A stretch of DNA of 60,857 bases from Myxococcota bacterium (GTDB lineage Bacteria; Myxococcota_A; Polyangia; Polyangiales; Houyiibacteriaceae), in assembly GCA_039186435.1 (NCBI GenBank), contig JBCDAA010000003.1, positions 1-60,857 of the forward strand, written 5' to 3'. The notes below the pieces were generated by a model. That model was not told where the DNA came from. It was given only the letters and a program-made list of their open reading frames with translations, and made no database searches. Position numbers and translations under genes: made by a program. This document shows positions 43,712 to 60,857 of the stretch, piece by piece. Within the stretch, counting starts at the first letter, position 1. The number at the start of each line of letters is the position of its first letter.

Positions 43712-45022
43712 CTACGCGATGAGCTTCCGGAGCACCTTGGACTTTCGCTGTCGGTCGTAGCCCTTTCGCTCGGGCGGGAGGTCCTTCGGTTTCGCCGGCG
43801 AAAACCCGCGCTCCTGAAACCAATGCCCCGACTGCGTCGTGAGCACGTAGAGCTCGGTGAGCTTTGCGTCGCGCGCGCGTCGTTCAATGGCTCGTAGCAG
43901 GACTTCTCCGCGGCCGTAACGCTGAAAATCTCGCCGCACGCCAAGGCACGCGAGTTCGCCTTTGCCGTCCTCGTACGGGTAGAGGGCCGCGCAGCCGAGC
44001 ACAAGCCCGTCGCGCTCCACGACTACAAAGTTGTCGATGTCCTCTTCGAGAAGCTCTCGCGAGCGATGAACGAGGACGCCTTCTTCTTCGAGCGGTTCGA
44101 GAATGTGCAATAGGCTCGGAACGTCGTTGAGGCGCGCCGGCCGAACGCCCTCGTAGAGTTCGCTCGTGACGAGCGTTCCGATCCCGTCGCGCGTAAAGAG
44201 CTCGCGAAGCAAACCGCCACTCTCCCGCCGATCGATGAGATGCGCGCGGGGCACACCTCGCTCCACCGCCGTCGTCGCCGCCGCGAGATGTTGTCGAACG
44301 TCCTGCGCGAGGCGCCGTTTGGACCCGAGAATCTCCCGCGCGGACGCAGGGTCGAGCTCGGTGTGAATCCCGCCCTTACCGTCGATGACGCCGCGTCCTT
44401 CCACAAGGGAAACAAGCTTTTCCGCGTTCAGCGCGACGGCCGTTTCCGCGGCGAGTTCAGGGGTGCTGAGGTTGAAGCACTCGCCGGTGACCGAGTAGCC
44501 GATGGGCGTGAGCGTGACGACCGCGCCGCGATCGAGGCGCTCGCGAATCGCTTCGTGGTCGATGCGCCGAACGCGTCCGGTGAAACCAAAGTCGACTCCG
44601 TCGATCACGCCGTGGGGGCGCGCCGTCACGAAGTTGCCCGTCGCAACGCGAACGCGAGCGCCAGCCATCGGTGAACCCGGCAATCCCATTGAGAGAAGAC
44701 GCTCGAGTTCCACTCGGTTGGTGCCCGCCGCTTCCATCGCGGCGGCGAGGGCGGCGCGGTCGGTGACCCGAAGGCCTTCGTGCATGCGCGAGGCGACGCC
44801 GCGGTCGGAGAGGCGTCGCTCGATCTGCGGGCGAGACCCGGCCACGAGGACAATGCGAACGCCAAGGCTGTTGAGGAGCGCCACGTCGCCAACGAGGTCG
44901 CGCAGGCCGCTCGAACGCATGACCTCGCCGCCGAAAACGACCACCATGGTGCGCCCGCGGTGCTGCCGAATGTAGGGGGCGGACTGCCGAAACCACTCCA
45001 CGAACTGCAGGTCGTCGCTCAC
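43712..45022 (-). CDS. argA: Amino-acid N-acetyltransferase (N-acetylglutamate synthase, AAK+GNAT)
   Basis: FVEWFRQSAPYI..HRGRT, GSRPQI, ELFTRDGIGT, GELACL, and LTTQSGHWFQERGF. The GTG start overlaps the argE stop. Confidence 0.95.
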   Translation of the reverse strand: MSDDLQFVEWFRQSAPYIRQHRGRTMVVVFGGEVMRSSGLRDLVGDVALLNSLGVRIVLVAGSRPQIERRLSDRGVASRMHEGLRVTDRAALAAAMEAAGTNRVELERLLSMGLPGSPMAGARVRVATGNFVTARPHGVIDGVDFGFTGRVRRIDHEAIRERLDRGAVVTLTPIGYSVTGECFNLSTPELAAETAVALNAEKLVSLVEGRGVIDGKGGIHTELDPASAREILGSKRRLAQDVRQHLAAATTAVERGVPRAHLIDRRESGGLLRELFTRDGIGTLVTSELYEGVRPARLNDVPSLLHILEPLEEEGVLVHRSRELLEEDIDNFVVVERDGLVLGCAALYPYEDGKGELACLGVRRDFQRYGRGEVLLRAIERRARDAKLTELYVLTTQSGHWFQERGFSPAKPKDLPPERKGYDRQRKSKVLRKLIA

Positions 45023-46173
45023 GCGGCCTCCACGCAATAACGCTGAATCAACTGGGCGTAGAACTCTTCGGCGGCGGTGAGACCCGCGCGGGAAATGTAC
45101 TCGTTCGGCTGGTGCGCGACGTCGATGCTCCCGGCGCCACAGACGATCGTCTCCATGCCCATCGCAGCGAAAAACGGGCTTTCGGTGCAGAACATGACGG
45201 CCTGCGGCGCGTGGCCGGTGAGCTTTTCGGCGAGCGCTACGAGCTCCGAGCCTTCCGGCGCCGCGAACGAAGGGACGCCCTCGACGAGGCTTTCAAAGGC
45301 GACCTCGACGGCGGCTTGATCGAAGCGCTCCGCGACCGCGTCGCGAATTCGCTCCGCGGTTTCGAGAAGATCCATGGAAGGCAAGAGCCGCACGTCGTAC
45401 GTCAACGAGCAGTGCGCGCAGATGCGATTTGGACTGTCGCCGCCCTCGATGCGGCCGAGGTTCAGCGTTGGCACCGGCACGGCGAAGGCCTCGTTGCGAT
45501 GTTCCTTTTGAAGTTCTTCGCGAACGGCGAGGAGCGCCGCGATGGCTTCGTGCATCGCTTCGAGCGCGCTGACGCCAAGGCTCGGATCCGACGAATGCCC
45601 GCTGCGTCCGGTGATCGTGATCGCCTCCATGAGGATGCCCTTGTGCATGTGCACCGGAACAAGCCCCGTGGGCTCGCCCACAACGCATCGCGAGGCGGTC
45701 GGCCGCTTCGCCTCGAGGAGGGCTCGGGCGCCATCCATGGTGCTCTCTTCGTCGGCGGTCGCCAAAAGCACCACCGGTTCCCGAAGCTGGCCCGCACGGA
45801 ACTTTGAGGCCGCGTGCAGCGCCGCACCGAAGAACCCCTTCATGTCTGCGGAACCGAGGCCGAAGAGCGCGCCGTCCTTCTCGGTGAGCTCGAAGGGCAC
45901 GGTGGCCCAGGACGCTTCGTCGAAGGGAACGGTGTCGCTATGACCCGCGAGCACCAACCCTCCTGGTCCGTCCCCGAGGGTTGCGATGAGGTTGGCTTTG
46001 GTCGGGTCGTTTGGAAGTGGCATGACCTCCACGCGAAACCCGACGTGCTCGGCCCACTCGGCAAGACGATCGATCACGCCGCGGTTGGACTGATCAAAAC
46101 GCGGGTCGGGTGAGCTCACCGAAGGCTGCGAGACGAGCTCGGCGACGAGGTCCGGCGATGAGGGGAGGGTCAC
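45019..46173 (-). CDS. argE: Acetylornithine deacetylase (M20A)
   Basis: LAGHSDTVP, GSADMKGF, ADEEST, GEPT, HKG, GHSS.P, and AHQPNEY. Adjacent to argA. Confidence 0.93.
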   Translation of the reverse strand: MTLPSSPDLVAELVSQPSVSSPDPRFDQSNRGVIDRLAEWAEHVGFRVEVMPLPNDPTKANLIATLGDGPGGLVLAGHSDTVPFDEASWATVPFELTEKDGALFGLGSADMKGFFGAALHAASKFRAGQLREPVVLLATADEESTMDGARALLEAKRPTASRCVVGEPTGLVPVHMHKGILMEAITITGRSGHSSDPSLGVSALEAMHEAIAALLAVREELQKEHRNEAFAVPVPTLNLGRIEGGDSPNRICAHCSLTYDVRLLPSMDLLETAERIRDAVAERFDQAAVEVAFESLVEGVPSFAAPEGSELVALAEKLTGHAPQAVMFCTESPFFAAMGMETIVCGAGSIDVAHQPNEYISRAGLTAAEEFYAQLIQRYCVEAA

Positions 46174-50778: not shown

Positions 50779-51213
50779 ATGAGCATGCAGAAGTTGACCG
50801 TGTTCGTGTTGTTCGCCTCTGCGGTCACCGGGTGTGGTCAGTCCCGCGTTCGGTCCGATGCCGGCGGGGAAGACGCGCGGCCGCGTCCCGACGCGCGGTC
50901 TCTCGACGCGACGTTTCGCGACGTACCCGACCCACGCTGCCCGCCCGCGCTTCCAGAGGATCTCTCGGTCTGCGACGCATCGATGATGGAACCCTGCGTA
51001 TACCTGATCTGCGACGGTGCCATCGAAGCGTCCGTGAGCTGTCGCGCGGACGGTCTCTGGGCTTCGAGGCCTCCTCTTTGTCCGGGTGAGGTTTGTCAGC
51101 AACGAGAACGCTGCTCGACCGAAGGCGCGCGGTGCTCGAGTGGTGAATGCGGGCCAATCCTCGTTTGCGAGGGAGGCGAGCTAGTCGCGCTCTTTGCGAG
51201 CGACTGCGACTAG
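50779..51213 (+). CDS. Small Cys-rich lipoprotein
   Basis: Lipobox VTGC, a D/A linker, then a Cys-rich domain (CP..LP.....C.....C.Y..C.......C..DG.W). Confidence 0.7.
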   Translation: MSMQKLTVFVLFASAVTGCGQSRVRSDAGGEDARPRPDARSLDATFRDVPDPRCPPALPEDLSVCDASMMEPCVYLICDGAIEASVSCRADGLWASRPPLCPGEVCQQRERCSTEGARCSSGECGPILVCEGGELVALFASDCD

Positions 51214-51266
51214 GAGAAACGCGCGTTCGGCACCCAAGGAGTGCGTTCCGGGCTAGACTCCTGGGC

Positions 51267-53075
51267 GTGAAGGCGCTCATCAAGGTCGGCTATGCGTGCA
51301 ACGACCATTGCGGCTTCTGCCACACCCTTCACGTGCGTCATATCGATGGCAGCGCGGACGAGGTGCATCGCAAGATCGAACGCGCGAAGGAGCTCGGACA
51401 CAGCATGGTGGTGCTGAGCGGTGGTGAACCCACCATTCGCCCTGAGCTTACTGAGTGGGCCGCGCACGTCGCGTCCCTCGACATGGACTTCGGTCTCGTC
51501 ACCAACGGCCGCATGCTCGCGTACCCCGACGTCGTCGAGACGTTGCTCAAGCATCGCCTTCGCTACGTCTATCTTTCGCTCCACGGTGGGAGCGCGAAGG
51601 TGCACAACCTCATGGTGCGTTCGCAGGCGTTTGAGGAGACCTACGGCGCGCTGGCCAACCTCACCGGGCGCGGTATCGATCTTCACGTGAACTGTGTGAT
51701 CACGCGCCACAACATGGATCACCTCCGGCCGCTGGTGGACTCGGTGCTTCCCTACGAGGACGCGTCGGTGAAGTTCTCGATGGTCGAGCCCAAGGGCGGC
51801 GGCGACGTCCTCTTTCGAAACCTCATGCCTCGCGTGAGCGACGTGGCCAAGAGGGTGGCGGACGCTCTCGCCTACGCGCGCGAGAAAACAGCGGGGCGGC
51901 CAGGACCACGCTTCGCCCACGGTGCAATTCCGCTCTGTCTCCTGCCGGGGGAGGAGAGCGGCTTCGATGATCTGAAGACCCACCAGTACTGGACGATGAT
52001 CGAGGTCGGGGAGTCGGACTTCTTTCCCGTCGACGACCTCAACAAAGTTCACCCCGCGCGGTGCGAGGGCTGCGCGCTCAAAGGCCCCTGTCCCGGGCTC
52101 TACCGCGGCTACCACGAGACCTTCGGCGACGAGGAGCTCAAGCCGGTGCGCGAAGGCGTGCGGAGCAACTCCTTCAACTACACCCTCGAGCGCGTCGTTC
52201 GAAGCGACCTGCCGTGCCCGCTTCGCGACGGGGCGCTCGGCATCACGCCGTGGGATCGGGGACGGCATCTCATCGTGCGCAACGGCGAGCGAGTCGGGAT
52301 CTATCGCGCGCCAACCCGTGACTTTTCGGACGCGGAGATCGCCGCCCTCAAACACGACGTCGGCCAGGTCTACGTCGACGCGTCACGTGGCAAGCCTGCG
52401 CCCGACGACTTCGCACGGGATCTCGTCAAGCTCCAGCGCGCGGGCGAGTGCGCTGGCTGTGAACACCAAGCCACCTGCAGCGGACTCTTCGAACCCGTGT
52501 TCGAGGATGTTTTCAGCCGCGACGATCAAGTCGTGCGCGCGCTTCTGGGATCCCTGGAAGGCGACGTTCTCGACATTGGCTGCGGCGAGGGCCCCTACGG
52601 CGATCTTCTCGGCGAACGCGTGCAAGCCGGCGCGCTCCGCTACGTCGGCATCGACCCCGATGCGCGGGCCATCCGCGGTCTTACCAAACGCTGGCCCTGG
52701 GCCGACCTGCACTGTGCGACGGCGGAGGACTTCGACCCCGGCCAGCAATTCGACCACGTCTTCATCCTACGAAGCTGGAACCACCTCTTCGATCCCGCCG
52801 GCTCCCTCGCGCGCGTCCGCGAATGGCTACGCCCCGGCGGCTGGCTCACCGTCGTCGACAACGTCGCCTTCGGCCTTGCCCGCACGGCGGCCCACACCTC
52901 TCGCGCCGAACGCTCCAGCGCTGAGCTCGAGCACCACCGCAACGACGACTCGGTCCAAGCCCGCAAAGTCGTGGAGGACGCCGGCTTCGAGGTTGTCCAG
53001 GAGATCGCGGTCGGGCCCGAGACCAGCAACCAGTGGCTCCTCCGCGGGCGGCCCGTCGACGAACGAGGCTCGTAG
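51267..53075 (+). CDS. Radical SAM (HxsC-like) plus class I methyltransferase fusion
   Basis: GTG at 51267, CNDHCGFC, SGGEPT, TNG, IPLC, two CxxC-x5-CxG motifs (CEGCALKGPCPG, CAGCEHQATCSG), VLDIGCGEG, and LRPGG. Confidence 0.85.
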   Translation: MKALIKVGYACNDHCGFCHTLHVRHIDGSADEVHRKIERAKELGHSMVVLSGGEPTIRPELTEWAAHVASLDMDFGLVTNGRMLAYPDVVETLLKHRLRYVYLSLHGGSAKVHNLMVRSQAFEETYGALANLTGRGIDLHVNCVITRHNMDHLRPLVDSVLPYEDASVKFSMVEPKGGGDVLFRNLMPRVSDVAKRVADALAYAREKTAGRPGPRFAHGAIPLCLLPGEESGFDDLKTHQYWTMIEVGESDFFPVDDLNKVHPARCEGCALKGPCPGLYRGYHETFGDEELKPVREGVRSNSFNYTLERVVRSDLPCPLRDGALGITPWDRGRHLIVRNGERVGIYRAPTRDFSDAEIAALKHDVGQVYVDASRGKPAPDDFARDLVKLQRAGECAGCEHQATCSGLFEPVFEDVFSRDDQVVRALLGSLEGDVLDIGCGEGPYGDLLGERVQAGALRYVGIDPDARAIRGLTKRWPWADLHCATAEDFDPGQQFDHVFILRSWNHLFDPAGSLARVREWLRPGGWLTVVDNVAFGLARTAAHTSRAERSSAELEHHRNDDSVQARKVVEDAGFEVVQEIAVGPETSNQWLLRGRPVDERGS

Positions 53076-53155: not shown

Positions 53156-53848
53156 CTATTCACCACCAAACGCTTCACGCCGAAGCGCTTCGATCTGCGC
53201 CTCTCGGTCGCGATGCATCTTTTCGATGCGCCCCCGAAGCTCCTGGAGAATCCCCATCCGCTCCCCTTCCGGTGCGTTTGCCACCGCGCCCTCCTCACAG
53301 AGCTCGCCCGAACGCCGCACCTCCGACAACGTCCGCGACGCCGACGTCAGCGTGTGCGTCAGCACCCCCAAGAAGAGCAAGAGCGGGATCACCAGCGCGA
53401 GCAACCGAATCCACTTCGGCGCACCCACCCGCCGCGCGACGAAGGGCCCAGAGAGCAAGAGCAAGAGGATCACCCCGCCGATGGCTAGCCAATGGCCGTG
53501 GTGGTCGAGCGTCTCCTCCCACAAACTGCGCGCCGCCCCCTCCCGCTGGTCGTGGCAGAAGTCGCTCTCCACCAAACGCTCATGCTCGCGCTCGATCGCC
53601 TCGTTGAGCTCGTTGCCAAGCTCCTGGTTCAAGTCCACGTGCGAGACATCAAAGGGCTCGGCAGAGGTCCCCTCCGGAACCAGCGAAGGATCGGACACAA
53701 AGACCGTTCGGCCCTCGTCGTTCTCGTAGCTGTAGAACGCCGGACCGTCGGGTTCACCCCAACTCTCGAGCGGTGAGCCCGCACATCCCGCGACCCACAC
53801 CCAAAGCAGCGCCCACCAAGCCGAGCGAGATCGCGTGCGCCAGGACAT
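53156..53848 (-). CDS. Membrane lipoprotein with a DUF4124-like motif
   Basis: Lipobox VAGC, FYSYENDEGRTVFVSDP, and two TM helices. Confidence 0.6.
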   Translation of the reverse strand: MSWRTRSRSAWWALLWVWVAGCAGSPLESWGEPDGPAFYSYENDEGRTVFVSDPSLVPEGTSAEPFDVSHVDLNQELGNELNEAIEREHERLVESDFCHDQREGAARSLWEETLDHHGHWLAIGGVILLLLLSGPFVARRVGAPKWIRLLALVIPLLLFLGVLTHTLTSASRTLSEVRRSGELCEEGAVANAPEGERMGILQELRGRIEKMHRDREAQIEALRREAFGGE

Positions 53849-53974
53849 CCTCATTTCCTCCGGCCCAAGACGCGTCATCTCCGGCAGCCGTACCACGAAT
53901 TCGCTCTCTCGGACGCTCCTCCTTTTCGCGTCTCCGGTATGGTACCCACCTCGGTCCCGGTGTATTTTCCGCCT

Positions 53975-54460
53975 ATGAGCGACGACTTCGTCGGCGTGCC
54001 CGACGCGATCGCCCGTGCGGACCTCCGAGAGAGTTCCGCCGAGCTTTACCTAGACGACTCCCTATACCCCCTCGAAGCCGTGTACGGCGCGAGCTTTACC
54101 TTCATCGATCGCTGCTTCGTGTTTATCGACCGGCCGGAAGCCAACCGCTTTCGCGTGACCCTCTCGACCAAGAAGCCAGGCACCGAGGAAGACGTGCTTC
54201 GTACGCTGGTCGGCGAGTTTTCGAACGAGCTCCTCGCGTGCGCCTGGCGGGCGAAGATTACCGAGCAGAACCGCGCCACGTTGGAAGCTGTCACCATGCA
54301 AGCCATCGGCGGAGCTATGGGTCCGCCGAGCCTCGACGATCTCGAGGACTTCGACTTCTCCGAGGAACCCTTCGAAGACCCACTCGGTATCGCCATGAGT
54401 TGGGAAGAGAAATACGGCAAGAAGTCACCGCCCAAGAAAAAGAAGAAAGAAGAAGAATGA
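53975..54460 (+). CDS. hxsD: His-Xaa-Ser system protein HxsD
   Basis: LDDSLYPLEAVYGASFTFIDRC and GEFSNELL..AWRAKI...N, ending in DPLGIA.SWEEKY. First gene of the hxs operon. Confidence 0.8.
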   Translation: MSDDFVGVPDAIARADLRESSAELYLDDSLYPLEAVYGASFTFIDRCFVFIDRPEANRFRVTLSTKKPGTEEDVLRTLVGEFSNELLACAWRAKITEQNRATLEAVTMQAIGGAMGPPSLDDLEDFDFSEEPFEDPLGIAMSWEEKYGKKSPPKKKKKEEE

Positions 54461-54675
54461 GGGAGCTCCGATTTTCGAAGGAGATCTACCGCGGCGAGGA
54501 CGTCGACGCCGCGCTGAGGGTCTTCGAGAAATACGGTGACTTCGAACAGGAAGCGACCGACGACGCTTGGGTGATCCGCGTGAGCGCCGGCTCCCGCGCA
54601 AGAGAGCGCCGCCTCGCTGGCGAACTTGGCAACTACGCGCTTGGCCTTACGATTCGTCATCGGGGTGTCTCGTGA
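54457..54675 (+). CDS. Second, short HxsD-like protein
   Basis: ATGA overlap. MRELRFSKEIY....VDAA..F...GELGNYAL has the same pattern as the HxsD core. Overlaps the hxsB GTG start. Confidence 0.7.
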   Translation: MRELRFSKEIYRGEDVDAALRVFEKYGDFEQEATDDAWVIRVSAGSRARERRLAGELGNYALGLTIRHRGVS

Positions 54676-56192
54676 GCGCACAAGTCGATTTTGCAGCGTT
54701 GGGCCTTGAGCGACTTTCCTTTGACCACGCCGCACCCTTTCGGATGCGGAAACTGGGCGACAAAACCCTGCTCACGAGCGTCGCGGGGCGATACGCGCTT
54801 CTCGACGACGAAGAGCTCCGTGCATTCGCCACCGGTGCGATCAAGGAGGGCACGCCCCTCTATGAGACGCTGAGCGAAGCAAACCTACTTCGCGACACGT
54901 TCGACGTGCCCGCGGCTGCGCAGATGCTTCAAGCGCGGCGCGCGTTCGTGGGTGCTGGACCGAATCTGCACGTTTTCGTCGTGACGCTCCGCTGCAACAC
55001 GACGTGCGTTTACTGCCATGCGTCGCGCGCCAACATGGACGCTGTCCACACGGACATGACGCCTGCCGTCGCGGAGAAGTGCGTCGACTTCGTGCTCTCA
55101 TCGACCAACCCTGCGATCACGATTGAGTTCCAGGGCGGTGAACCGCTTGTCGCCTTCGACACGGTTAAGCACATCATCGAGTACGCTCTCGAGAAGAACA
55201 AAACCATCGGGAAGGAACTCGAGTTCACGATGGTCTCGAACCTTTCCTTGATGGATGAGGAAAAGCTCACGTACTTGCTCGAGCATCGCGTGCAGCTTTG
55301 CACCAGCATCGATGGTCCGCCGGACATCCACGACAAGGTTCGCAAGCTCCCCAAGGCCTACGGCGATAGCGGTCACGACCTCGCGGTGCAGTGGACCCGT
55401 CGAATCAACGAGCGGTACCGAGAGATGGGCCTTGACGAGACCCTCTACCATGTCGAAGCGCTCGTCACGACGACCCGCGGGCTCCTTCCGCGCTGGAAGG
55501 AGCTCGTCGACACCTACGTTGGCCTCGGGTGCCGGGCGCTCTTTCTGCGGCCGCTCGATCCCTTCGGCTTCGCGGATCGAACCGGCAAGCGCATCGAATA
55601 CCCGCGCGAGGAGTACCTCGAGTACTACCGCAACGCGGTCGAGTACATGATCGAGCTAAACCACCAGGGGGTGGAGATCCTCGAGCGCTACGCGGCCATC
55701 TTTCTGACGAAGATCCTTCGGGGCGAAGACCCCAACTTCCTCGACATTCGTCAGCCCGCCGGCGCGGGCATCGGGCAGCTCGCGTACAACTACGACGGGC
55801 AGATCTTCACCTGCGACGAAGGTCGTATGTTGCACGAGATGGGTGACGATGCGTTTCACCTCGGTCATGTGGACACGTCGTCCTACCGCGACATCGTCGG
55901 CCATCCGACCGTCCGCGCGGTGGTCATCGCGGGGCAGCTTCAGGGACTCCCTGACTGCACCGACTGTACGTACCAGCCCTACTGCGGCGTCCCGCCAGTT
56001 CACAGCCACAAGGTTCAGGGGACCATCTTCGGTCGGATGCGCGAGTCGACCCTTTGTCAGGTACACAAGGGCATCCAGGACTACCTCTTCGAGAAGATTG
56101 CGGAGGGCGATCCCAAGACTCTGGAGGTCTTTGAACGCTGGACGACCATTCGCCCGCGGGAGCACTTTCTTCACCCGCCGGGCGAAGAGTAG
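54672..56192 (+). CDS. hxsB: His-Xaa-Ser system radical SAM maturase HxsB
   Basis: N-terminal PFR.RKL..LLT..G, GPNLH.FVVTLRCNTTCVYCHAS, IEFQGGEP, CTSIDGP, GAGIGQLAYNYDG.IFTCDEGRM, and CTDCTYQPYCG. Confidence 0.9.
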   Translation: MSAQVDFAALGLERLSFDHAAPFRMRKLGDKTLLTSVAGRYALLDDEELRAFATGAIKEGTPLYETLSEANLLRDTFDVPAAAQMLQARRAFVGAGPNLHVFVVTLRCNTTCVYCHASRANMDAVHTDMTPAVAEKCVDFVLSSTNPAITIEFQGGEPLVAFDTVKHIIEYALEKNKTIGKELEFTMVSNLSLMDEEKLTYLLEHRVQLCTSIDGPPDIHDKVRKLPKAYGDSGHDLAVQWTRRINERYREMGLDETLYHVEALVTTTRGLLPRWKELVDTYVGLGCRALFLRPLDPFGFADRTGKRIEYPREEYLEYYRNAVEYMIELNHQGVEILERYAAIFLTKILRGEDPNFLDIRQPAGAGIGQLAYNYDGQIFTCDEGRMLHEMGDDAFHLGHVDTSSYRDIVGHPTVRAVVIAGQLQGLPDCTDCTYQPYCGVPPVHSHKVQGTIFGRMRESTLCQVHKGIQDYLFEKIAEGDPKTLEVFERWTTIRPREHFLHPPGEE

Positions 56193-56308
56193 TGATTTCA
56201 GGAGTTTGTCGTCTTTTCCGCGCGAACCCTCTCCGCCGAAAATTGCAGGCTCCCGGGAGTCCATCGCGTGACAAGAGCCCGCCGGGGAGGCTAAGATAGC
56301 CACATATC

Positions 56309-56626
56309 ATGGCGGATTCGGATCACCGAGACGACGATCAAGATCAAGACTGGGGCGACGACTTCGGCGACGAGCTTCCGAGCTTTGAGCGGGAAGCGGC
56401 GGGGTCCTTGAACGTCGAGGAAAAGGAAATGTCCGAACGTGCGCGCGCCAACGCGGACGAGGTGGACGCTTCCGGAAGCCAGCGCGGTGCACAGCACTGT
56501 TCGCACGGCTCCCATGGCTCGCACGGAAGCCACGGTTCGCACGGCAGTCACGGCTCGCACGGCAGTCACGGCTCGCACGGCAGCCACGGCTCGCACGGCA
56601 GCCACGGATCCCACGGCAGCTGGTAG
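56309..56626 (+). CDS. hxsA: His-Xaa-Ser repeat precursor peptide (HxsA-type)
   Basis: 62-aa acidic leader, then HCS, 13 x HGS and a terminal W. Lies between two radical SAM genes. Confidence 0.9.
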   Translation: MADSDHRDDDQDQDWGDDFGDELPSFEREAAGSLNVEEKEMSERARANADEVDASGSQRGAQHCSHGSHGSHGSHGSHGSHGSHGSHGSHGSHGSHGSHGSHGSW

Positions 56627-56632
56627 GCCCCG

Positions 56633-57682
56633 ATGGAAGGCAAACTGCGCCTTCCTCTCGCGGATCGGGCCGACACCGCGCGCGATGTAAGCGCACGGAT
56701 TCAGGAGAAGGCCGAACGCGTCCACATCCTTACCGGCCCGGTGTGCAACAACAACTGCATCTTCTGCATGGAGGAAGATCGGGAGGGTCGAAAGATCCTC
56801 AACTCGCAAACGGACGACGCCCTCGTGGACTGGATCCTCGAGCAGAACGCGCCCTGTGAGGAGGTCTGCTTTACCTCCGGCGAGCCGACGATGAACAAGA
56901 GCCTTCCGCGCTGGGTGCAGAAAGCGCGAAAGGCGGGTGTGGATCGGGTCAGCGTGATGACCAACGCGCGAGCGCTCTCCTACCTGCGCTACGCCCAGAT
57001 GCTCGTCAAAGCGGGGATGAACCGCTTCTACGTGTCCATTCATGGTCACACCGCTCGGCTTCACGAGAGTTTGGTGCGAACACCAGGCGCTTTCGACCAG
57101 ACCGTCGAGGGCATCCGCAACATCACAAAGCTCAAGCGCTACGGCGTCGAGCTTCACACCAGCACCGTGGTGACCAAGCGGAACCTTCCGCACCTCAAGG
57201 ACATCTATCGGTTCCTTCGAGCACTTGGCGTCGATCAAGTGGTCTTCAACATCATGCAGGCGAACGGCCGGGCCGATACCTACTTCGAGCGTATCTTTCC
57301 CCGCTACTCGGATATCGCCGCGGAGGCCGCGCGTTTTGTGGAGGGGGAGACCGGGCCGGTGATGGCGTTCTTCGTCGACATTCCGCTCTGCACGACGACC
57401 GCCCTGCCCGACTTCAACCGAGGCTTTGTCGAGGCCTACAAACACTACGAGCCCGACGACGGAAGCGCGGGCGGTCACGACGTTCGCCTGAAGGTGCTCG
57501 ACCGCGCGGAGGACGAAGAGGGCCCCGTTGCCGTTCGGCGAAGCGACCTTGATGACGACCTCCGCCAAAAGCGGGCGGAATGCCGGAGCTGCCGCTACGA
57601 CGCGGTGTGTGAGGGCGTTTGGTCGAACTACCTGAAGCGTTTTGGCTGGGACGAGATGGTGCCGGTGCCCTTCGATGACTGA
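56633..57682 (+). CDS. hxsC: His-Xaa-Ser system radical SAM protein, HxsC-like
   Basis: CNNNCIFC, FTSGEPT, MTN, SIHGH...H, GAFDQT..G, IPLC, and C-terminal CRSCRYDAVCEG. Starts 6 bp after the precursor. Confidence 0.82.
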   Translation: MEGKLRLPLADRADTARDVSARIQEKAERVHILTGPVCNNNCIFCMEEDREGRKILNSQTDDALVDWILEQNAPCEEVCFTSGEPTMNKSLPRWVQKARKAGVDRVSVMTNARALSYLRYAQMLVKAGMNRFYVSIHGHTARLHESLVRTPGAFDQTVEGIRNITKLKRYGVELHTSTVVTKRNLPHLKDIYRFLRALGVDQVVFNIMQANGRADTYFERIFPRYSDIAAEAARFVEGETGPVMAFFVDIPLCTTTALPDFNRGFVEAYKHYEPDDGSAGGHDVRLKVLDRAEDEEGPVAVRRSDLDDDLRQKRAECRSCRYDAVCEGVWSNYLKRFGWDEMVPVPFDD

Positions 57683-58175
57683 GCGGCGTGTCGTCCTGAT
57701 GCGGCATGCGAAGAGTTCCTGGAAAAGCGATGCGCCGACGGACCACGCGCGGCCACTAAACAAACGAGGGCGACGAGCCGCCCCGAAGGTCGCGCTGGAG
57801 CTAAAGCGTCTCGACTGGGTGCCTGACCTCGTTCTCTCGAGCGATTCGGTGCGAACGACCGAGACCTGGGATCTCATGCACGAGGCGATGGGAGGGGAGC
57901 GTCCGGTGCGTTTTCTGCCGGAGCTCTACCACGGCGACACGGACGACATTCGTAGCGCGCTCGCCACGGTGGGCGAGTCCTTTCGCACGGTGCTAGTGCT
58001 CGGCCACAACCCCGGCTGGGAGGAAGCGCTCTTTTGGTTTTCGGGTCGCGACGAAGAAATGAAGACGGCGTGCGCGGCGCTTCTGACGAAGAAGGCGATC
58101 AGCTGGGCGGAGGCGTCGCAGTCCGCGACGACCTGGGCCCTCGCTCATTTTATTGCGCCGCGGGAGCTCGAGTAG
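57675..58175 (+). CDS. SixA-type histidine phosphatase
   Basis: LMRHAKS, D..RPL..RG, SS...RT.ET, LY, and GHNPG. The ATG overlaps the hxsC stop. Confidence 0.9.
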   Translation: MTERRVVLMRHAKSSWKSDAPTDHARPLNKRGRRAAPKVALELKRLDWVPDLVLSSDSVRTTETWDLMHEAMGGERPVRFLPELYHGDTDDIRSALATVGESFRTVLVLGHNPGWEEALFWFSGRDEEMKTACAALLTKKAISWAEASQSATTWALAHFIAPRELE

Positions 58176-59322: not shown

Positions 59323-59862
59323 TCACGTCGGCTCGGCTCTCCACGTCGGTCCTTCGGAGACGTCGATCGAAACGGCGTCCCGCGCGCGAAACTCGTCTCC
59401 CTCGAAGCGGTCGCGATAAACGGTGCTCACGCCCGGGCACGCGCTTCGCGCCGCGCACGTCTCACAGGCGCTTCCGAAGGACTGTGCTTCCGTACGTCGC
59501 GCGCGGGTTGCGTAGGGCCCGAGCAAGCAGAGCGGCCACGCCAAGAGGGAGACCTCGATGCCCTGACGTTCGGCGCGAGTAAGCGCGTGCAACACCCGAG
59601 GCGCGGCGAGCGCTAACCGCGGCGCCACCGCGTCGATTTCGCCGGCCGTGGGTACTGGCGCCAGGGACCAGCGCTCTACCTTTTCGCGAACGAGAACGGG
59701 CAAGAGGTGATCGAGGGCGCGCATGTTGGAGCGCGTCACCCACGTCAGAACGGTCCGCGGGGTTGAGGCCCGTAGCGCCTTGAGAGACTCCGTATAGACG
59801 GGAAACCCGAGGGCCGAGTGATAGTCGTGAACCTGCTGCGTCCCGAAGAGGACGGTGCTCAT
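59323..59862 (-). CDS. Truncated radical-SAM-like protein (HxsC-like C-terminal half, no CxxxCxxC)
   Basis: LFG...VHD, VTRSN, APRL, WPLCLLGP, and CETCAARSACPGV...Y..RF...E. The ATG overlaps the upstream stop. Confidence 0.65.
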   Translation of the reverse strand: MSTVLFGTQQVHDYHSALGFPVYTESLKALRASTPRTVLTWVTRSNMRALDHLLPVLVREKVERWSLAPVPTAGEIDAVAPRLALAAPRVLHALTRAERQGIEVSLLAWPLCLLGPYATRARRTEAQSFGSACETCAARSACPGVSTVYRDRFEGDEFRARDAVSIDVSEGPTWRAEPT

Positions 59863-60857
59863 GTGTCGAAGAGGCCGTTGCTGATCTGAATCTCGAAGGG
59901 CGCACAGGTCACCGCCGCACCCATGCGCCGCACTACCTGAAGGAAGTACGTCTGGGAGTTGTCGGAGCACTTGCTGACGTTGGTCGTGTTGACGCTGCTG
60001 GCCGTGCACGGACATTCGCCAGTGCGTCGCCCAGCGAGGGTTTCGCGGAAGTCGGTGGCCCAGCTGAAGCCGGTAAACCCGGACGCCGGACAGACTGCGC
60101 TGTCGCAGGTGCCCTGAAAGACGTTGAAGCGATAGGTGTCGTCCGGGTTCGTCATAAAGCGGACGTCGACGTGAAAGTTGTCGCAGCTTGTGTCGGGCGC
60201 GTCGATCGCGCGGAATTGGTACCAAATCTCTCGACCCGCAGGCACGAGGTTGCCGGTCACCATCTGCATTTGTCCGTCATCGCGCACGTCACCGAGGTTG
60301 ATCGGCGCGCCGCACGCCATGCCCATCCCCATCGCCGGGGTCGCAGTGCACTCGCATCCGTTGTCGGCCACGCCGTCGACGTCGTACTGGTTCGGCGGGC
60401 ACCCGCACGCGCCGTCGATGCACTCGCCGCCCATCGGGTCGTCCGCGCAGAGAAGGCCCGGGTTGCCCTCGTCGATCATCTCATCGCAGTCCTCGTCCAT
60501 GAGGTTGCAGAGCTCCATCGCGAGCGGGCTGATGTTCGGGTCAGCTTCGTTGCAATCTTCGGCGGCCGGCGAGCCGTCTCCATCGATGTCGAGGTCCCCT
60601 GGAACGCAGTTGTTGTTCCGGCAGAGGCTGAGTTCGCCGGGGCACTCCGCGTCGCTGAAGCATCCGGGGAAGGGTTCGCAGCTTCCACCGACGCAGCGCG
60701 TGAAGCCTTCGCACACCACCCCATCACACGGGTCCGGGGCTGTGTCGACGCCCGCGTCGACGCCCGTATCGCGACCCCCACCGTCGGTTGTGCCTCCGTC
60801 CGAGGGTGTCGGTCGGTCCGTGCATCCTTGCAGGCTGTCGCAGAACTGACCCATGCC
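59859..60857 (-). CDS. Cys-rich secreted protein with putative metal-binding repeats (partial, begins beyond the window)
   Basis: DIDGDGSPAAEDCNEADPNISPLAMELCNLMDEDCDEMIDEG (myxobacterial putative metal-binding motif) and DVDGVADNGCEC. Confidence 0.8.
   Translation of the reverse strand, partial: GMGQFCDSLQGCTDRPTPSDGGTTDGGGRDTGVDAGVDTAPDPCDGVVCEGFTRCVGGSCEPFPGCFSDAECPGELSLCRNNNCVPGDLDIDGDGSPAAEDCNEADPNISPLAMELCNLMDEDCDEMIDEGNPGLLCADDPMGGECIDGACGCPPNQYDVDGVADNGCECTATPAMGMGMACGAPINLGDVRDDGQMQMVTGNLVPAGREIWYQFRAIDAPDTSCDNFHVDVRFMTNPDDTYRFNVFQGTCDSAVCPASGFTGFSWATDFRETLAGRRTGECPCTASSVNTTNVSKCSDNSQTYFLQVVRRMGAAVTCAPFEIQISNGLFDT

Follow-up and report, generated by a model that had tools for sequence, protein, structure and literature searches.

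HxsA4, a His-Gly-Ser repeat protein and probable substrate of a myxobacterial variant of the Hxs radical-SAM maturation system

The question raised by positions 1 to 60,857 of contig JBCDAA010000003.1 of the Myxococcota assembly GCA_039186435.1 (60,857 nucleotides (nt), referred to here as the window) is what is encoded by a small open reading frame (ORF) ending in 14 consecutive His-Xaa-Ser (HxS) triplets, and whether the radical S-adenosylmethionine (SAM) enzymes encoded on either side of it act on its product. The ORF, hxsA4, is a real and typical myxobacterial member of the catalogued HxsA4 family (NF038313). We consider it likely that it is a genuine, translated gene whose product serves as the substrate in a myxobacterial version of Hxs radical-SAM maturation; the parts list of this system is observed, and its mechanism is inferred from sequence comparison. 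The HxsA4/HxsC4 branch of the Hxs systems is catalogued but experimentally unstudied, and no paper naming HxsA4, HxsC4, HxsA2 or HxsA3 was found in the literature searched. The window finding itself is ordinary, a catalogued family correctly recognised. What is added here is a conserved leader motif; a repeat range of 5–21 with near-absolute HGS conservation and lineage-wise turnover of the array; a six-gene module with an HxsC-like radical-SAM–methyltransferase; a conserved HxsD tail; and the lack of an export feature.

A sequence-only reading of the window had described the ORF as a precursor with an HCS-(HGS)13-W core, and its coordinates, strand and sequence were all as described (Table 1). 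The protein reads MADSDHRDDDQDQDWGDDFGDELPSFEREAAGSLNVEEKEMSERARANADEVDASGSQRGAQ followed by the core, which forms the C-terminal 43 residues. Residues 1–62 contain 20 Asp and Glu versus six Lys and Arg (isoelectric point 4.05), and the core contains no Lys or Arg. Also in line with that reading, no other folded domain was found: the Pfam scan returned a single borderline low-complexity 'Collagen' match (27.3 bits versus a cut-off of 27.2), which is explained by the Gly-x-x period, and no recognisable domain beyond it. The maximum Kyte–Doolittle hydropathy over 19 residues was −0.45, and HxsA4 thus lacks a signal peptide or membrane segment; across 35 myxobacterial HxsA4 sequences no hydrophobic segment was seen either (highest value 0.91). 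What the sequence-only reading did not mention is that the family is already catalogued. HxsA4 matched NCBIfam NF038313 ('His-Xaa-Ser repeat protein HxsA4') with 101.2 bits (cut-off 55, E 4.6e-29) over residues 22–105 and model positions 1–93 of 93, the non-repetitive leader included, and a genome-wide profile search gave 100.8 bits for NF038313 at the same site. The model of canonical HxsA, TIGR03979, was not among the matches at E ≤ 0.01. The NCBI name HxsA4 is already carried by proteins of Omnitrophota and Elusimicrobiales. A search with the whole protein was dominated by the repeat, with 101 matches at E ≤ 0.001 among 5105 candidates, collagen-like false friends included.

The claim that this precursor is encoded beside Hxs radical-SAM enzymes was borne out. 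The operon runs hxsD, hxsD-like, hxsB, hxsA4, hxsC4, and all five products score over curated NCBIfam cut-offs, the two radical-SAM neighbours HxsB and HxsC4 among them. For HxsC4 (NF038332) and HxsD-like (NF038315), as for HxsA4, the match was full-length. HxsB aligned to positions 2–466 of TIGR03978 over residues 56–526 of its long ORF, and Pfam returned Radical_SAM, Fer4_12 and a weak SPASM match. HxsC4 reached only 92.6 bits on the canonical HxsC model TIGR03977 (cut-off 267.9) and carries the Cys motifs CNNNCIFC near the N terminus and CRSCRYDAVC near the C terminus. Further upstream lies a gene for a fusion of an HxsC-like radical-SAM enzyme with a class I SAM-dependent methyltransferase. 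Its best NCBIfam matches, HxsC4 (101.8 bits) and HxsC (71.4 bits), are both under cut-off; Pfam gave Radical_SAM with 81.7 bits (residues 46–198) and Methyltransf_23/12/25/11 (residues 468–618).

HxsD extends beyond the span of the canonical 90-position HxsD model (residues 38–126) into an acidic tail of the form ...FDFSxEPFxDPLGIAxSWEEKYGKK (residues 127–173; GAMGPPSLDDLEDFDFSEEPFEDPLGIAMSWEEKYGKK). This tail is more conserved than the HxsD core, and D147, P148, L149, G150, I151, A152, S154 and W155 are invariant in an alignment of 24 sequences; to judge from this conservation, it looks like a candidate short linear docking motif for a partner enzyme. An AlphaFold2 model of HxsD had a mean predicted local distance difference test (pLDDT) score of 74.6, with a core of about 87–94 arranged as beta-beta-alpha-beta-beta-alpha-alpha. 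Comparison of the model with the PDB gave no match at E ≤ 0.001, the best being an Rpb11-like alpha/beta fold (E 6e-3, template modelling score 0.36), and weighs neither for nor against HxsD as a predicted leader-recognition (RRE/PqqD-like) domain.

Relatives were collected by an HxsC4 search with one genome per species, and the best 80 of 147 were kept (loci L009–L088). Counts out of 80 refer to these HxsC4-found Myxococcota loci, with an HxS ORF defined by at least four consecutive HxS triplets; one alignment was made without the row of L047, which has an internal stop. By record title, the loci come from Polyangiaceae, Polyangiales, Nannocystaceae, Sandaracinaceae, Kofleriaceae, Archangium, Myxococcales, Myxococcota, Polyangia and (delta)proteobacteria metagenome-assembled genomes (MAGs). 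Cultured carriers among them are Nannocystis pusilla, N. punicea, N. exedens DSM 71, N. bainbridge, Enhygromyxa salina DSM 15201 and Polyangium fumosum DSM 14668. HxsC4 scored over cut-off in 23 of the 401 Myxococcota genomes sampled, the window genome counted, so the system is patchy and rare.

An HxS-repeat ORF was present in 52/80 loci, and recurrence of the same architecture to this extent places hxsA4 far beyond chance. In 44 loci the gene immediately preceded hxsC4 in the same orientation, two of these having two tandem copies, and an HxS ORF lay on the opposite strand within 5 kb in six. When the window proteins were compared with the loci by tblastn, HxsB was found in 34/80, HxsD in 28/80 and HxsD-like in 25/80; an orthologue of the radical-SAM–methyltransferase fusion (at least 45% identity) was syntenic in 21/80 and immediately preceded hxsD at 17 of the 28 loci where HxsD was detected. 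For hxsA4–hxsC4 pairs with no hxsB within 5 kb, an over-cut-off HxsB was encoded elsewhere in all four such genomes (5/5 of the genomes searched), in N. punicea about 0.39 Mb from the pair. All-against-all clustering of ORFs from 81 loci found, beyond the Hxs components, no gene in more than 19 loci and no conserved transporter or peptidase; nor was a metal transporter or regulator conserved beside the module in the loci compared.

The comparison of orthologues that the sequence-only reading had proposed, of repeat number and leader, gave a conserved leader motif and a repeat range of 5–21. Alignment of the regions preceding the core in 35 sequences defined the motif as (L/I/V)P-x-(F/Y)-x-(R/K)-...-L-x3-(Q/E)(R/K)(E)(I/V/M)(S/A)-x-(R/K)-A-x3-A-(D/E), in short form LPxF...L...QREISxRA..NAD. 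Columns P24, L34, A45 and A49 are invariant or at least 90% conserved, and a variable linker of 15–25 residues separates the motif from the core. A net negative charge was found in 32/35 leaders. The acidic N-terminal run DDDQDQDWGDDFGDE, put forward earlier as an enzyme docking site, varies in length and sequence among relatives. As the conserved element begins at LPSF, the docking peptide proposed earlier overlaps only the first four residues of the real motif. A predicted complex of HxsB (482 amino acids (aa)) with the HxsA4 leader (residues 1–68) scored 0.06, which gives no answer either way. When only the leader (residues 14–66) served as query in a word-index protein search, no candidate came up; the index needs shared 5-mers, so this result carries little weight.

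Repeats were counted in 53 complete hxsA4 ORFs from the window and 50 loci. Left out were L057, in which the Trp is not followed by a stop codon, and two ORFs with runs of N inside the array (L019 and L059); the arrays of L023 and L049 are cut by the locus edge, and their counts are lower bounds. Repeat number ranged from 5 to 21 with a median of 13 (five in L009, 15 in L010, 14 in L011 and 14 in the window), and genomes of cultured strains gave 10 units at each of five Nannocystis loci and 18 units in E. salina. After the first triplet the sequence was HGS in 642 of 643 triplets, the remaining one being HGR. The single Cys of the first triplet, a feature picked out in the sequence-only reading, is present in the window and is not required, as the first triplet is HCS in 39 ORFs, HAS in 10, HGS in three and HSS in one. 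A terminal Trp was found in 53/53 ORFs, by a counting pattern that itself required a terminal Trp and stop; an open-pattern search with no such requirement returned only ...HGSW endings, one HGRW and the L057 read-through.

This constancy of the peptide is written in variable DNA. All six Ser codons are used across the 53 ORFs (TCG 253, AGC 166, TCC 124, AGT 46, TCT 30, TCA 23), Gly is written with four codons and His with both. Retention of HGS in spite of such heavy synonymous variation indicates very strong purifying selection on the HxsA4 peptide. In the window the core uses TCG six times, AGC four times, and TCC and AGT twice each for Ser; GGC 10 times, GGA twice and GGT once for Gly; and CAC 13 times and CAT once for His, so that the codon mix noted earlier was exact. 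The array is less diversified in DNA than that mix had implied. Its 14 units comprise nine different 9-mers, and Tandem Repeats Finder reported an 18-nt period (6.7 copies, 89% matches, score 177), with 64% matches at a 9-nt period. Starting with the third unit, TCN and AGY codons for Ser follow each other in strict alternation. Arrays of relatives are all-TCN, all-AGY or strictly alternating, and that of the close relative L011 is all-AGY while the window array alternates. Over the whole set, 270 of 642 adjacent pairs switch Ser codon class, versus 192.6 ± 8.8 in 2000 shuffles (maximum 222; none of the 2000 reached 270). The 18-nt period, the class-switch pattern and the range in repeat number together point to ongoing duplication and loss of 9- or 18-nt units beside purifying selection. 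Of the earlier proposal, which set selection on the peptide against recent slippage, the first half therefore stands and the second does not. As read from these sequences, HGS arrays are continually rebuilt by gain and loss of units, and selection retains those that read HGS.

Put together, these data suggest how the system may work. The leader motif, probably helical, would recruit the maturases, and HxsB and HxsC4, together with the small HxsD and HxsD-like proteins, would place covalent changes on the His and/or Ser side chains of (HGS)n-W. Expression of hxsC4 may be translationally coupled to that of hxsA4 across the 6-nt gap between them, as may that of hxsD and hxsD-like through their 4-nt overlap, and the radical-SAM–methyltransferase fusion would belong to the set in the lineage of the window. 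The product would be a His-rich chain of free length (5–21 units) with a fixed unit sequence and fixed ends (Q/T/G-H-C/A-S... and ...H-G-S-W). Free length with fixed unit and ends would sit more easily with a product that is multivalent or multi-site than with a folded domain, and its role may lie in defence, metal handling or something else.

Several points weigh against this proposal. The chemistry assigned to HxsA4 is extrapolated from one distant relative, which has few and basic repeats. The predicted HxsD structure did not resemble a known leader-recognition domain in the PDB comparison. Adjacency of hxsA4 and hxsC4 is not universal, since 28/80 loci, mostly distant Polyangium-type ones with HxsC4-like proteins of 57–61% identity, have no HxS ORF within 5 kb, and the precursor of Polyangium fumosum adjoins hxsB on another contig (L092). 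The case for transcription, translation and modification of hxsA4 is made by sequence comparison. The source genome is a MAG with 7.6% estimated contamination, and repeat numbers in short-read MAGs may be collapsed; runs of N interrupt the array in two loci.

Coordinates of the module and of the surrounding features are collected in Table 1. The spacer between hxsB and hxsA4 contains a weak promoter-like pair. A promoter consensus scan of 6.5 kb gave two sites versus 0.8 ± 0.9 in shuffles, a pattern match only that does not imply function; if the pair is real, the hxsA4 mRNA would be nearly leaderless. The sole GGAGG near hxsA4 is 18 nt upstream of the ATG.

Table 1. Positions of the Hxs module genes and surrounding features in the window
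Feature	Position	Strand	Remarks
Arginine-biosynthesis-type genes (amino-acid kinase/GNAT fusion, M20 peptidase) and VWA-domain protein	43712-46173	-	6-10 kb upstream
HxsC-like radical-SAM and class I SAM-dependent methyltransferase fusion	51147..53075	+	642-aa ORF, true start not fixed
Membrane-protein ORF	53156-53896	-	Lies between the radical-SAM–methyltransferase fusion and hxsD
hxsD	53939..54460	+	173 aa; TIGR03976 52.2 bits (cut-off 50, barely met), residues 38-126
hxsD-like	54457..54675	+	~72 aa; NF038315 61-64.6 bits (cut-off 41); start overlaps hxsD stop by 4 nt
hxsB, radical-SAM/SPASM peptide maturase	54744..56192	+	482 aa from model-aligned Met; ORF open from 54567; TIGR03978 533.7 bits (cut-off 370)
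Weak sigma-70-like promoter match GTGACA-18-TAAGAT	56268..56297	+	In 116-nt hxsB-hxsA4 spacer; ends 12 nt before ATG
hxsA4	56309..56626	+	ATG at 56309, TAG stop 56624-56626; 105 codons/105 aa
HxsA4 layout (residues)			Variable acidic N-terminus 1-21; conserved leader ~22-50; variable linker 51-62; core 63-105
hxsC4, divergent HxsC-type radical-SAM enzyme	56633..57682	+	349 aa; NF038332 582.4 bits (cut-off 500); starts 6 nt past hxsA4 stop
SixA-like histidine phosphatase	57642-58175	+	His_Phos_1 33.5 bits; SixA 37.7 bits (cut-off 74.5); overlaps hxsC4 end by 41 nt
Convergent ORF	59323-60225	-	C-terminal 150 residues conserved in 23/80 loci; weak match to HxsC C-terminus, E 4e-5
Convergent ORF	59859-60854	-	MopE-type putative metal-binding motif, 33.8 bits (cut-off 27)

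The SixA-like phosphatase was considered as a partner acting on the His array and rejected, being under the SixA cut-off and syntenic in only 1/80 loci (L011). The ORF orf311 was found in 0/80, and with these counts neither gene is part of the Hxs system. The convergent ORF at 59859-60854 is syntenic at 44–60% identity in eight closer loci, with any match at all in 10/80. The 15 kb upstream of the module hold arginine-biosynthesis-type genes, a gene for a VWA protein and one for a LamB-like porin. This upstream context is ordinary housekeeping and contains no defence island.

Variants of the locus were also seen. Sandaracinus-type genomes (L013, L014 and L019) have a tandem hxsA4 pair of 13 and 18 repeats with near-identical leaders and one hxsC4 behind it. 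In a Nannocystaceae MAG (L057, 4593-6017), compared with L060, the hxsA4 stop TAG reads TCG and a 21-nt insertion preserves the frame, which yields an in-frame HxsA4–HxsC4 fusion that may be natural or an assembly error. L094 (G403:C38) is a second Hxs locus within one genome; its precursor combines a longer, dissimilar leader with an HCS-HSS-(HGS)n-HGQW core, and the HGQW ending also occurs in Omnitrophota HxsA4 proteins. The MAG of the window itself contains a second Hxs module. Contig C417 (L007/L008) carries hxsD (157 aa, tail DPLGIAESWESKYGKK), hxsD-like and an hxsB running off the contig end, and contig C566 (L002) carries an HxsA4-like ORF with leader MADDEIPSFTPKRPLALTREQRGIADG... and a core of 15 HGS units then W (57.3 bits on NF038313), with no hxsC4 after it on that contig. 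The ends of C417 and C566 share a translated stretch, so the two contigs probably join; given the estimated contamination, the second module could stem from another organism.

What matured HxsA4 does in the cell, and by which chemistry it is matured, can be read in several ways. The canonical HXS system was reportedly predicted by Haft and Basu in 2011. According to the parts used here of a report by Li et al. (Nat Commun 2026, PMC13128918), canonical HxsD-HxsB-HxsC-HxsA protects E. coli broadly against phages by blocking DNA entry; HxsA undergoes radical-SAM-dependent maturation and N-terminal processing, HxsC binds HxsD, and the chemistry of HxsB and HxsC was not reconstituted by the authors. 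The only chemistry published for the family, in the same parts of that report, is a site-specific change of +8 Da (+C/−4H) at S-H-R-S-S of the last HxS repeat of HxsA. It is possible, if rather unlikely, that HxsA4 likewise matures into an anti-phage effector, perhaps acting by another route given the absence of a recognisable export signal. HxsB and HxsD of the window pass the same curated models as their canonical counterparts, and the patchy distribution of HxsC4 is consistent with such a role. Against it, HxsA4 has no signal peptide, peptidoglycan-binding domain (wall anchor) or basic repeat residues; HxsA has all three, and the published mechanism, as far as it is described in those parts, needs or invokes each of them. 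PADLOC 2.0.0, which has no Hxs models, returned only generic viperin-type radical-SAM matches on the window, and the upstream region offered no defence island. The report, whose survey comprised 10,369 HxsA proteins, places 99.7% of HXS systems in Pseudomonadota, with the gene order hxsD-hxsB-hxsC-hxsA in 99.6%, and Myxococcota did not come up in a term search of it (PMC13128918).

An intracellular peptide whose His array, whether modified or not, binds Ni, Zn or Cu, or a precursor of a small redox or metal cofactor in which the units or the HGSW end are processed in the manner of pyrroloquinoline quinone (PQQ) or mycofactocin, is an unlikely alternative that nonetheless accommodates the 14 evenly spaced His residues and the lack of an export signal and of any conserved transporter or peptidase gene. 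The invariant C-terminal Trp is reminiscent of C-terminal cofactor precursors, and the MopE-type putative metal-binding motif of the convergent neighbour, syntenic in the eight close loci, would also be in keeping with metal handling. MopE-type motifs are frequent in secreted proteins of myxobacteria, and this neighbour is confined to the closest relatives, which detracts from the association; so does the lack of a conserved metal transporter or regulator beside the module, and metal binding itself is a proposal made from the sequence.

Radical-SAM enzymes of the XyeB/YhhB type form three-residue cyclophanes, in which a C–C bond joins the aromatic ring of residue 1 to C-beta of residue 3, with an expected shift of −2 Da per crosslink. 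Along the lines of the sequence-only reading, His would be linked to Ser in this manner iteratively through all 14 triplets, and the chain would become a ladder of small macrocycles. This model is doubtful. It would suit the perfect three-residue period with an aromatic residue in position 1, as in three-residue cyclophane substrates; HxsB is a SPASM peptide maturase, and the near-absolute conservation of HGS fits every unit being a substrate. On the cyclophane maturase models, however, HxsB scored 42.4 bits (XyeB, cut-off 450), 49.5 bits (YhhB, 445) and 45.5 bits (AmcB, 425), and its better non-Hxs matches were thioether-type maturases (CcpM 104.9, PapB 100 and SCIFF 93.5 bits). The presence of three radical-SAM enzymes and a methyltransferase suggests more than one kind of reaction, and the +8 Da change at a single repeat, the one measured for the family (PMC13128918), differs from −2 Da per link.

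A more radical possibility, which we think improbable, is that no HGS unit is left as it is: the three radical-SAM enzymes, together with the methyltransferase, would turn the array into a regular ladder polymer of fused imidazole-containing rings, or proteolysis of the altered chain would release 5–21 copies of a small His-Gly-Ser-derived intracellular cofactor or metallophore. Such multi-site or multi-core substrates are allowed by the free unit number with fixed unit sequence, the lack of an export signal and of a conserved transporter, and the extra enzymes. If true, anti-phage HxsA would be only one use of HxS repeats, which would serve more generally as building blocks in a radical-SAM chemistry of a new class. 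The last alternative, that no gene is present and the array is a slippage-made 9/18-nt microsatellite open by chance or antisense to a true gene (ORF 56291-57877, minus strand), draws on the tandem-repeat DNA and on overlapping long antisense ORFs, usual at 65% G+C, and is refuted for practical purposes by the full-length NF038313 match with its non-repetitive leader, the leader motif in 35 sequences, the synonymous-only variation and the fixed position before hxsC4 in 44 loci.

The substrate reading of hxsA4 that we prefer has practical consequences. Myxobacterial HxsA4 is a short, soluble-looking and naturally His-tagged substrate of 5–21 identical units in culturable hosts (Nannocystis, Enhygromyxa and Polyangium), and its modification could therefore be much easier to map. 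Since the HxS repeats are strongly selected without the export signal, wall anchor and positive charge of the published DNA-trap model, some more general function must reside in the repeats or in their modified form.

Compared with the three-residue cyclophane systems (XyeB, YhhB and AmcB types), the module shares a SPASM-type maturase, a leader-bearing peptide and a three-residue motif with an aromatic first residue, and differs in the low scores of its enzymes on the respective models, which for HxsC4 reached 49.5 bits on AmcB (cut-off 425). In comparison with canonical HXS of E. coli and Klebsiella, window HxsB (TIGR03978) and HxsD (TIGR03976) belong to the same curated families, each system adds a second radical-SAM enzyme of the HxsC type and a substrate with His-x-Ser repeats, and the S-H-G-S-W end of HxsA4 resembles the modified S-H-R-S-S of HxsA. 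In contrast, HxsA4 fails TIGR03979 and HxsC4 fails TIGR03977; the gene order is D-D'-B-A-C rather than D-B-C-A; a second HxsD-like gene and a third radical-SAM/methyltransferase are added; and the host phylum is Myxococcota rather than Pseudomonadota. HxsA4 of the window has 14 repeats in which x is Gly (Cys in the first), whereas HxsA has about five in which x is basic. Without export signal, anchor and positive charge, the mode of action of HxsA4 must differ at least in part from that of E. coli HxsA, which traps DNA in the periplasm. Window HxsA4 is also like the NF038313 members of Omnitrophota and Elusimicrobiales, which share the C-terminal (HxS)n ending in HGSW or HGQW. The non-myxobacterial members compared have a Lys-rich N terminus followed by a hydrophobic signal-like or transmembrane-like stretch and mixed HGS/HAS/HSS units, whereas in myxobacterial HxsA4 the leader is acidic, without a hydrophobic stretch and marked by a conserved motif of its own, and the repeat is pure HGS.

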